Positions 44,187-58,760 of a stretch of 64,000 bases of DNA are shown here, piece after piece. How positions within the stretch are numbered: position 1 is the stretch's first letter; every line of letters starts with the position of its first letter. This DNA comes from Escherichia coli (GTDB taxonomy: Bacteria > Pseudomonadota > Gammaproteobacteria > Enterobacterales > Enterobacteriaceae). The notes beneath the pieces are model-generated. The model did not search any database and was not told the origin of the DNA. It saw only the letters and a program-made list of their open reading frames with translations. The stretch lies in NCBI RefSeq assembly GCF_044324785.1, contig NZ_CP172127.1; one strand, written 5' to 3'. The position numbers and the translations under genes are program-made.

Positions 44187-44236
44187 CTTCTTTCCTTATT
44201 TAACCCTCTTCCCAGCGGGAAGAGGGTATTTGTCAT

Positions 44237-53085: not shown

Positions 53086-53132
53086 TTTTCCTCACTCATC
53101 ATTCTTGATTGTGTATAGATCCCTGGCAGTGG

Positions 53133-54518: not shown

Positions 54519-54528
54519 AGCAAACTCC

Positions 54529-54553
54529 AAAAACCCTCCGGCGAACCGGAGGG
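54529..54553 (-). terminator. terminator-like hairpin (CCCTCCGG-ttcg-CCGGAGGG + UUUUU) between ygeY and hyuA, U-tract abutting the hyuA RBS
   Basis: Read directly on minus strand: CCCTCCGGTTCGCCGGAGGGTTTTTGGAGTTTGCTATG. Confidence 0.5.
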
Positions 54554-54570
54554 GAATAAGTGAAGAGTAA

Positions 54571-57036: not shown

Positions 57037-57093
57037 ATCCTATCCTTTTGGCCTCTGGAAATAGAGGGCCGACCAGCTGATCGGCCCGAGGGG

Positions 57094-58284: not shown

Positions 58285-58760
58285 AAAGTCCCGGTAGTGG
58301 AATGACAGGCAAAGAGGTTTATTTCACTGTGACTTGCCAAAAGTGATTGGTCTTTTCACAGCTATACCTGGGACTAACAATAACTATGCCAGAATTATCC
58401 AAGCGGCTGCAAAAGACTAATTTGACGGGTAATGTGTGGGGTTGATCACAAATTGATGCCAGCTTCTGGTTGTTTGTAAAATACGAAAACGTTTGGCTTT
58501 TTTTATCGCGTTATTTATTTGCTGCTAAGTATCAGAAATAAGATAAAGGGGCAGGTTATCCCTCGTCAGTTTGATAAACTCACCGCCGTAATTCTCATAT
58601 TGATATAGAAATGTGATATCTCTTCCATAATTTCATTAGAAAGTGATAAAAATCTTATGTTTTTATCAAAGCCAATTTCGTCTGAGTTAATATCATCATG
58701 ATCTGTGAACCATCAACGTCTTCAATGATCGACTTTTAAGTAAGTCTGGAAGGTAAAGCT

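Follow-up and report, generated by a model that had tools for sequence, protein, structure and literature searches.

The spacer between ygeY and hyuA in Escherichia coli carries a short GC-rich stem-loop that is real and is under selection as a structure of the sense RNA (minus strand). We conclude that the hairpin is constitutive; it is not a riboswitch, a leader-peptide attenuator or a switch controlled by a ligand or by translation. With moderate confidence, and judging from the sequence, we propose that this intercistronic stem-loop sets a fixed transcript boundary, and that in E. coli it would also work as a leaky intrinsic terminator and protect RNA 3' ends. Coordinates throughout are those of the window, the whole 64,000-nt stretch of E. 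coli DNA that was analysed, which is 100% identical to sequence of E. coli O157:H7.

The ygeY-hyuA spacer and its operon

The hairpin lies within a cluster of minus-strand genes, ygeW (58284-57094), ygeX/dpaL (57036-55840), ygeY (55782-54571), hyuA (54518-53133) and yqeA/arcC (53085-52153), from which ygeV, the gene for a sigma54-type activator, is divergently oriented. They encode the lower half of the anaerobic uric-acid (2,8-dioxopurine) pathway, which was described only recently and is being engineered into probiotic E. coli for urate lowering. HyuA opens the hydantoin ring; YgeW, aided by the carbamate kinase YqeA, and then YgeY and YgeX convert the HyuA product to pyruvate. A survey that scanned one genome per species yielded HyuA orthologues at 80 loci. 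Throughout Enterobacterales, Aeromonas and Photobacterium the gene order ygeW-ygeX-ygeY-hyuA-yqeA was constant, and it was partly kept in some beta-proteobacteria.

Positions 54519-54570 correspond exactly to the 52-nt intergenic spacer between ygeY and hyuA. Read along the minus strand, the UAA stop codon of ygeY (54573-54571) is 17 nt upstream of the hairpin base, the interval being filled by a pyrimidine-rich, unstructured 5' spacer of 17 nt, UUACUCUUCACUUAUUC (54570-54554). The 5' arm of the stem, CCCUCCGG (54553-54546), the loop UUCG (54545-54542) and the 3' arm CCGGAGGG (54541-54534) together form a stem-loop at 54534-54553 with 8 bp, seven of them G-C, and a loop of 4 nt; this stem-loop is the feature's conserved core. 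Directly 3' of the stem there is a run of five U residues (U5, 54533-54529), which is a possible terminator U-tract and at the same time the linker to the hyuA Shine-Dalgarno (SD) sequence. The SD, GGAG (54528-54525), is near-invariant among orthologues and single-stranded in the predicted ensemble; it is 6 nt from the start codon, from which it is separated by UUUGCU (54524-54519), the start itself being the AUG at 54518-54516 in the RefSeq annotation. The original prediction had proposed this anatomy, a GC-rich hairpin that runs through U5 into the hyuA SD and AUG on the minus strand, and it proved exact to the base.

An in-frame UUG is present at 54530-54528 on the same strand, 12 nt 5' of the hyuA AUG, and the GGAGG of the hairpin 3' arm lies 4 nt before it. 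A mechanical list of open reading frames starts hyuA at UUG (465 aa), and RefSeq starts it at AUG (461 aa).

The hairpin has a folding energy of -16.6 kcal/mol (z = -3.85), and none of 200 shuffles folds as well. Among 1000 dinucleotide-preserving shuffles of the 52-nt spacer, a simple hairpin of the same stability arose in three, and in 29 there was a less stable hairpin (<= -10 kcal/mol) with four or more U among the five bases behind it. The pairing probability of the hairpin was at least 0.9 in all of the longer contexts tried, up to 300 nt. A consensus terminator scan reports the site with eight pairs, seven of them G-C, a loop of 4 nt and the tail TTTTTGGAGT; the scan total of 23, as compared with 16 +/- 4.8 expected, is no excess over shuffled sequence, so that being listed by the scan means little on its own. 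With up to three mismatches allowed, the hairpin 20-mer has no second occurrence in the window. A search of the literature returned no prior description of the ygeY-hyuA hairpin, and its sequence was absent from searchable papers.

The stem-loop is selected as an RNA structure

The ygeY-hyuA junction is present in one copy per genome in 5163 of 5426 complete E. coli genomes, and in 4207 of these 5163 the 55 nt made up of the spacer and the AUG are identical. The spacer is unchanged in a lineage whose flanking coding sequence has diverged by 7%. In the E. coli variants that were examined, the loop had changed from UUCG to UUCA or UUUA, an extra C had been gained before the stem, or the U-run was U4 or U6; the basal pair was mismatched or weakened in one of them, and the rest of the stem was intact in all.

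Beyond E. coli, 95% of the 63 usable orthologous ygeY-hyuA junctions contain a hairpin of <= -10 kcal/mol (median -18.5 kcal/mol). The sequences of the stems differ widely, as illustrated by the arm pairs CUCCCGUCG/CGGCGGGAG, UCCCGCCGC/GCGGCGGGA, GCCCCGUAC/GUGCGGGGC and GGGGCGCC/GGCGCCCC. When RNAalifold was applied directly to a MAFFT alignment of 43 junctions it gave no structure, because stems of unequal length had been misaligned. We then realigned 45 junctions with a covariance model built with the E. coli helix. In this alignment 86% of cells are paired, as against 74.7 +/- 1.3% in shuffled alignments, of which none out of 500 reached 86%; controls in which the partner columns were slid gave 41-62%. 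Seven of the eight stem pairs have changed on both sides. Because a covariance-model alignment is fitted to the structure, these numbers are somewhat inflated, and we therefore relied on the slid and shuffled controls as well; the raw, unaligned orthologue sequences show the same pattern of covariation. Moreover, U·G pairs are found at several stem positions. A U·G pair corresponds to a C·A mismatch on the other strand or in DNA, and the object under selection is therefore the sense-strand RNA.

The position of the hairpin relative to hyuA is more constant than its position relative to ygeY. Its 3' end is 11-17 nt from the start codon in nearly all Enterobacteriaceae, and 28-35 nt from it in Hafnia, Aeromonas and some Morganella, whereas anything from 8 to 29 nt separates the ygeY stop codon from the hairpin, and insertions of 160-200 nt between the two are tolerated in E. 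whittamii, Escherichia sp. E1V33 and K. indica. An identity as a REP/BIME element, or as another repeated palindrome, was rejected, the hairpin occurring at a single place per genome and being unique in the window. Identity with a known RNA family was likewise rejected; a search of Rfam with the ygeY-hyuA element returned nothing relevant at E <= 1.

The insertion in E. whittamii (locus L053, 5788-5946), which is also present in Escherichia sp. E1V33 (L004), is a palindromic element of about 160 nt that lies between the ygeY stop codon and the hairpin and leaves the block of hairpin, U-run and SD intact. Relatives of this element (about 80-83% identity over about 90 nt) are found at a median of three unannotated places per E. 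coli genome, and it is therefore a dispersed intergenic repeat; Rfam returned nothing meaningful for it. Other insertions at the same junction are found in K. indica (L010) and Serratia oryzae (L050).

Transcription across the junction and the U-run

Around the 3' end of ygeY, the sense strand shows no sigma70-like or sigma54-like motif that could serve hyuA, and a promoter belonging to hyuA itself was rejected for this reason. hyuA falls in the same YgeV iModulon as ygeW, ygeX and ygeY (PMC12133099); the literature uses the term 'ygeWXY operon' (PMC10602906), and we infer, rather than observe, that hyuA is inside the operon together with ygeWXY. Given the shared iModulon and the missing promoter motif, hyuA and yqeA most likely depend on read-through from upstream. 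Any termination at the hairpin must then be partial, which fits the original idea that the hairpin attenuates read-through into hyuA-yqeA.

A sigma54 promoter and a gSELEX peak have been reported between ygeV and ygeW. We observed a sigma54-like sequence, TGGCAT-N5-TTGT, at 58377-58391 on the minus strand, about 93 nt 5' of the ygeW AUG, in agreement with the reported promoter and peak. It has three mismatches to the strict consensus, and was hence absent from a scan that allowed two.

The ygeY-hyuA hairpin has the stem and loop of an intrinsic terminator (about 5-14 bp, GC-rich, with a loop of 3-8 nt). Set against a U-tract of about 7-9 nt, its tail agrees in part: five consecutive U are followed by GGAGUUU, so that the distal half is G-rich. 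In the trp attenuator, a U-tract shortened to about four residues leaves almost no termination in vitro. A tract of five U that is followed by GGAG counts against strong termination, and is unlikely to terminate fully. The hairpin begins 17 nt past the stop codon, which should place it outside the footprint of a terminating ribosome.

We compared tails by a U-tail score, the classical geometric weighting of U residues over the 15 nt that follow the stem. The E. coli site scores 4.71, among the highest of the orthologues; among those with a strong hairpin, only 18% attain a score of >= 4, and 27% one of >= 3.5. As an internal comparison we used the terminator-like hairpin at the end of the operon, 3' of yqeA (52146-52121, minus strand; 10 bp, tail AUUUUCAUUU), whose tail ATTTTCATTT scores about 3.3 by hand calculation. 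Judged by sequence, the ygeY-hyuA site equals or exceeds this end terminator in the quality of its stem and tail. Across taxa the score does not separate junction hairpins from operon-end hairpins (medians 2.75 and 2.71), and it is used here solely as a relative measure for that reason.

The U-run itself is variable among relatives, although the linker is nearly always pyrimidine-rich. Within Escherichia it takes the form U4CU, U5 or U6. Citrobacter is mixed, with UUUCU in one case, AACAU in another, and UCU or CU before the SD in most; in Klebsiella, Raoultella, Kluyvera, Enterobacter, Yokenella and Trabulsiella just UCU, CU or C leads from the stem to GGAG. Runs of U5-6 reappear in Morganella, Hafnia, a Serratia and Enterobacillus, and in the first three of these they are fused to AGGAG, much as in E. 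coli. Hairpin and U-tract are thus not conserved together, and conservation of the hairpin does not require termination, which counts against the explanation that we prefer. The E. coli U5 differs by one transition from the UUUCU of a close Citrobacter relative, and could be neutral. No 3' end at the ygeY-hyuA site is recorded in the supplements of Adams 2021 or TERMITe; this is weak evidence, because the operon and its iModulon are rarely active in standard conditions.

Stable hairpins are present at other junctions of the operon. At ygeW-ygeX, the hairpin GGGCCGAUC-AGCU-GGUCGGCCC (57087-57066, minus strand; 9 bp, GC, -18.3 kcal/mol) begins 6 nt past the ygeW stop codon and is followed by UCUAUUUCC, without a U-run. 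It is kept in 33 orthologues with compensatory changes, one pair being C-G in 18 of them and U-A in 15. At ygeX-ygeY, the hairpin UGCUCCCCG-CAAAA-CGGGGAGUA (55824-55802, minus strand; -16.2 kcal/mol) is followed by a run of A, and 56% of orthologous junctions have a hairpin of <= -10 kcal/mol. That both of these hairpins lack U-runs would count against a reading of the ygeY-hyuA hairpin as a terminator. The remaining spacer, between hyuA and yqeA (53086-53132, minus strand), is 47 nt long in Escherichia and has no hairpin or other structure; most other Enterobacteriaceae (loci L008-L043) have a spacer of just 10-13 nt, such as AGAGAGGAAUGA, and so short a gap hints that hyuA and yqeA are tightly coupled in translation there.

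Strong hairpins of this kind are common in the operons of the window: of its 19 close same-strand junctions, six have a hairpin of <= -15 kcal/mol within 60 nt of the stop codon, and three of the six are outside this operon. Only the ygeY-hyuA hairpin, among the six, is directly followed by a U-run. Those elsewhere include the hairpins after the stop codons at 44236 (minus strand) and 16590 (plus strand), with -19.4 and -15.8 kcal/mol respectively. The ygeY-hyuA junction also has what characterizes a stabilizer hairpin, namely a stem-loop that is stable, lies where the upstream cistron ends and is conserved in structure.

Translation of hyuA and possible roles of the hairpin

The hairpin had also been proposed to be a regulated structure controlling hyuA translation. 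This was not borne out, since the SD lies outside the stem and is cheap to open, no competing fold was found, and Rfam gave no match. Opening the SD costs 1.84 kcal/mol in E. coli, and 1.89 kcal/mol when the footprint of a ribosome at the ygeY stop codon is masked; the median over 42 orthologues is 2.8 kcal/mol. Across 42 orthologues, the mean cost is 2.9 kcal/mol with the natural upstream spacers and 3.6 kcal/mol with shuffled ones (p ~1e-4, which is only indicative because the species are not independent), so that the SD is, if anything, kept free. RNAfold gives weak outer helices in which GGAG pairs with CUUC or ACUCU after the ygeY stop codon. Translational coupling through sequestration of the SD in these helices was rejected, because the opening cost is low and is unaffected by masking of the ribosome footprint.

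No stretch of 6 nt or more that is complementary to either stem arm, as would be needed for an antiterminator, is present in the last 330 nt of ygeY, and none of the contexts tried contained an alternative fold that competes with the hairpin. In the folding models, then, the SD of the read-through RNA is shown to be accessible and the RNA has no alternative fold. Of the hallmarks of an attenuator or riboswitch, neither an alternative structure or sensor domain nor an SD or start codon sequestered by default was found.

In the reading that we prefer, the U5 that follows the stem would make the E. coli hairpin an intrinsic terminator of modest strength, at which termination is partial. A fraction of the polymerases that start at the sigma54/YgeV-dependent promoter upstream of ygeW would be released at about 54529-54526, and the hairpin would shield from 3' exonucleases both the 3' ends so released and any that arise when the U-rich linker is later cut. 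On balance, ygeWXY message would be more abundant than that of hyuA-yqeA. In the RNA that reads through, the SD would be unpaired 5 nt behind the hairpin, and hyuA would be translated normally. When the pathway was reconstituted in vitro, YgeW and YgeY were supplied at 10 times the amount of HyuA, which is circumstantial but fits such a step-down. In the pathway, the HyuA step precedes those of YgeW, YgeY and YgeX, and a large step-down of hyuA would therefore be counter-productive; this counts against our preferred explanation.

Two other readings are not mutually exclusive with this one or with each other. The hairpin may be an element for processing and stability that does not terminate transcription; cuts would fall in the single-stranded flanks, hairpins would block 3'-to-5' exonucleases, segments of the operon would have their own half-lives, and the E. 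coli U5 would be incidental. This is a possible, if somewhat unlikely, account. It is consistent with strong hairpins at three of the four junctions, with the compensatory changes at both junctions tested for conservation (ygeW-ygeX and ygeY-hyuA), with the lack of the U-run in most orthologues and with the frequency of strong hairpins in the window, which is as for a generic stability device. Yet as a U-tract the E. coli tail surpasses the one at the operon's end terminator, and recurrence of the hairpin-U5-SD layout in distant lineages hints that the U-run is not always incidental; the cleavage itself is predicted. The hairpin may also form part of the hyuA initiation region, where it would insulate the SD from other pairings or protect the 5' end of a processed hyuA-yqeA RNA, with the U-rich linker as a putative binding site for S1 or an enhancer. 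The constant distance between hairpin and start codon, as opposed to the variable one between stop codon and hairpin, points in this direction, as do the more accessible SD with natural spacers and the pyrimidine-rich linker. However, a constant distance could simply follow from a compact spacer of 44-56 nt, which is a small target for insertions, and the hairpin lies much further from the start codon in Hafnia, Aeromonas and some Morganella; the role in translation is putative, and we think this reading unlikely.

The remaining explanations fare worse. A full terminator that ends a ygeWXY operon, with hyuA-yqeA transcribed from their own promoter, would agree with the use of 'ygeWXY operon' in the literature (PMC10602906) and with a terminator-like hairpin and U5 at the site. 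It is very improbable given that the region upstream of hyuA is devoid of sigma70- and sigma54-like motifs, that the spacer is merely 52 nt, that gene order and tight spacing are constant across genera, that hyuA co-varies with ygeWXY in the YgeV iModulon, and that U5 followed by GGAG is a poor candidate for complete termination. Only geometry, the adjacency of hairpin and SD and the GGAGG in the 3' arm, speaks for a regulated attenuator or translational switch, in which a ligand, a protein or upstream translation would set the state of the hairpin or the exposure of the SD. We find such a switch hardly credible for an element of 20 nt without a conserved loop, with no alternative fold or antiterminator, no Rfam match, an SD that is not sequestered and no effect of a ribosome at the stop codon. 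Finally, the perfect 8-bp inverted repeat might be a chance palindrome, or a site at the DNA level such as a palindrome for a transcription factor, and have no function as RNA. The probability of this is close to negligible, as pairing is kept despite sequence change, a comparable stability arises in 3 of 1000 shuffles, and the hairpin is not a repeated element; a transcription-factor palindrome was rejected because the stems covary and U·G pairs are present.

A broader proposal, which we offer as speculation and consider quite doubtful, is that the hairpins at ygeW-ygeX, ygeX-ygeY and ygeY-hyuA constitute a coordinated post-transcriptional programme that would fix the ratios of the urate-pathway enzymes across Enterobacterales, through segmental decay or a dedicated RNA-binding factor. 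The third hairpin in Escherichia and Morganella would then be a dual-use module, its U-run serving both as a terminator tail and as a spacer or enhancer for the ribosome-binding site.

The ygeY-hyuA hairpin is mechanistically ordinary operon punctuation. Leaky internal terminators are known from T1 in rpsU-dnaG-rpoD, from the rplL-rpoB attenuator, and from the terminators that follow the major pilin genes papA and fimA. The ygeY-hyuA hairpin resembles these in having a GC stem-loop with a 4-nt loop and a U-run just past a stop codon, and in preceding genes that have no promoter of their own and that depend on read-through, so that a step-down is expected. It differs from them in that the U-run is only 5 nt, merges into the next SD and is missing in most orthologues, and in that termination is predicted from sequence. 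Stem-loops that stabilize RNA or direct its selective processing include the malE-malF REP hairpins and those of the Rhodobacter puf operon and the Clostridium cellulosome operon. As in these intercistronic stabilizers, stable hairpins follow successive stop codons here, two of the three being conserved as structure and not as sequence, and those at the other two junctions have no U-tract; unlike the malE-malF REP hairpins, the ygeY-hyuA hairpin is single-copy and has no similarity to REP/BIME.

Synthetic tunable intergenic regions adjust operon expression with cassettes made of a hairpin, an RNase E site and a second hairpin. The spacer described here packs the same set of parts into about 50 nt, with a hairpin and a U-rich single-stranded linker ahead of a ribosome-binding site; it is natural, however, has one hairpin per junction, and its effect is putative. 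U-rich translational enhancers 5' of the SD, for example in the atpE leader, bind ribosomal protein S1. The U-run directly 5' of the hyuA SD is comparable, but it is only 5 nt long and comes right after a stable stem, and an enhancer role is putative.

For RNA biology, the hairpin provides a clean intercistronic element whose structure is supported by covariation, and no new mechanism. Strain CBT2.0 has a constitutive promoter in front of ygeW (PMC12507026). If the hairpin is a leaky terminator or a stability boundary, it would cap hyuA-yqeA whenever, as in that strain, a stronger promoter sits solely upstream of ygeW; knowing, removing or tuning the boundary would be of practical value in the engineering of urate degradation. 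The boundary may also explain why the literature sets 'ygeWXY' apart from hyuA-yqeA despite their apparently common promoter.

Some minor observations concern other parts of the operon and other taxa. In Photobacterium (loci L063, L074-L076 and L080-L083) the ygeY-hyuA spacer is 257-365 nt long, with no comparable hairpin beside the start codon, and 3' of hyuA the best yqeA-like match reaches only about 40% identity; this junction may be a point at which the operon has been split or rebuilt in that genus. In the window (about 57039-57055, minus strand), and at most of the loci L006-L049, the sequence AAGGAUA(A)GGA, with two GGA motifs, lies just 5' of the ygeX start codon; it could be simply the SD, or else be bound by a protein that recognizes GGA, such as CsrA.
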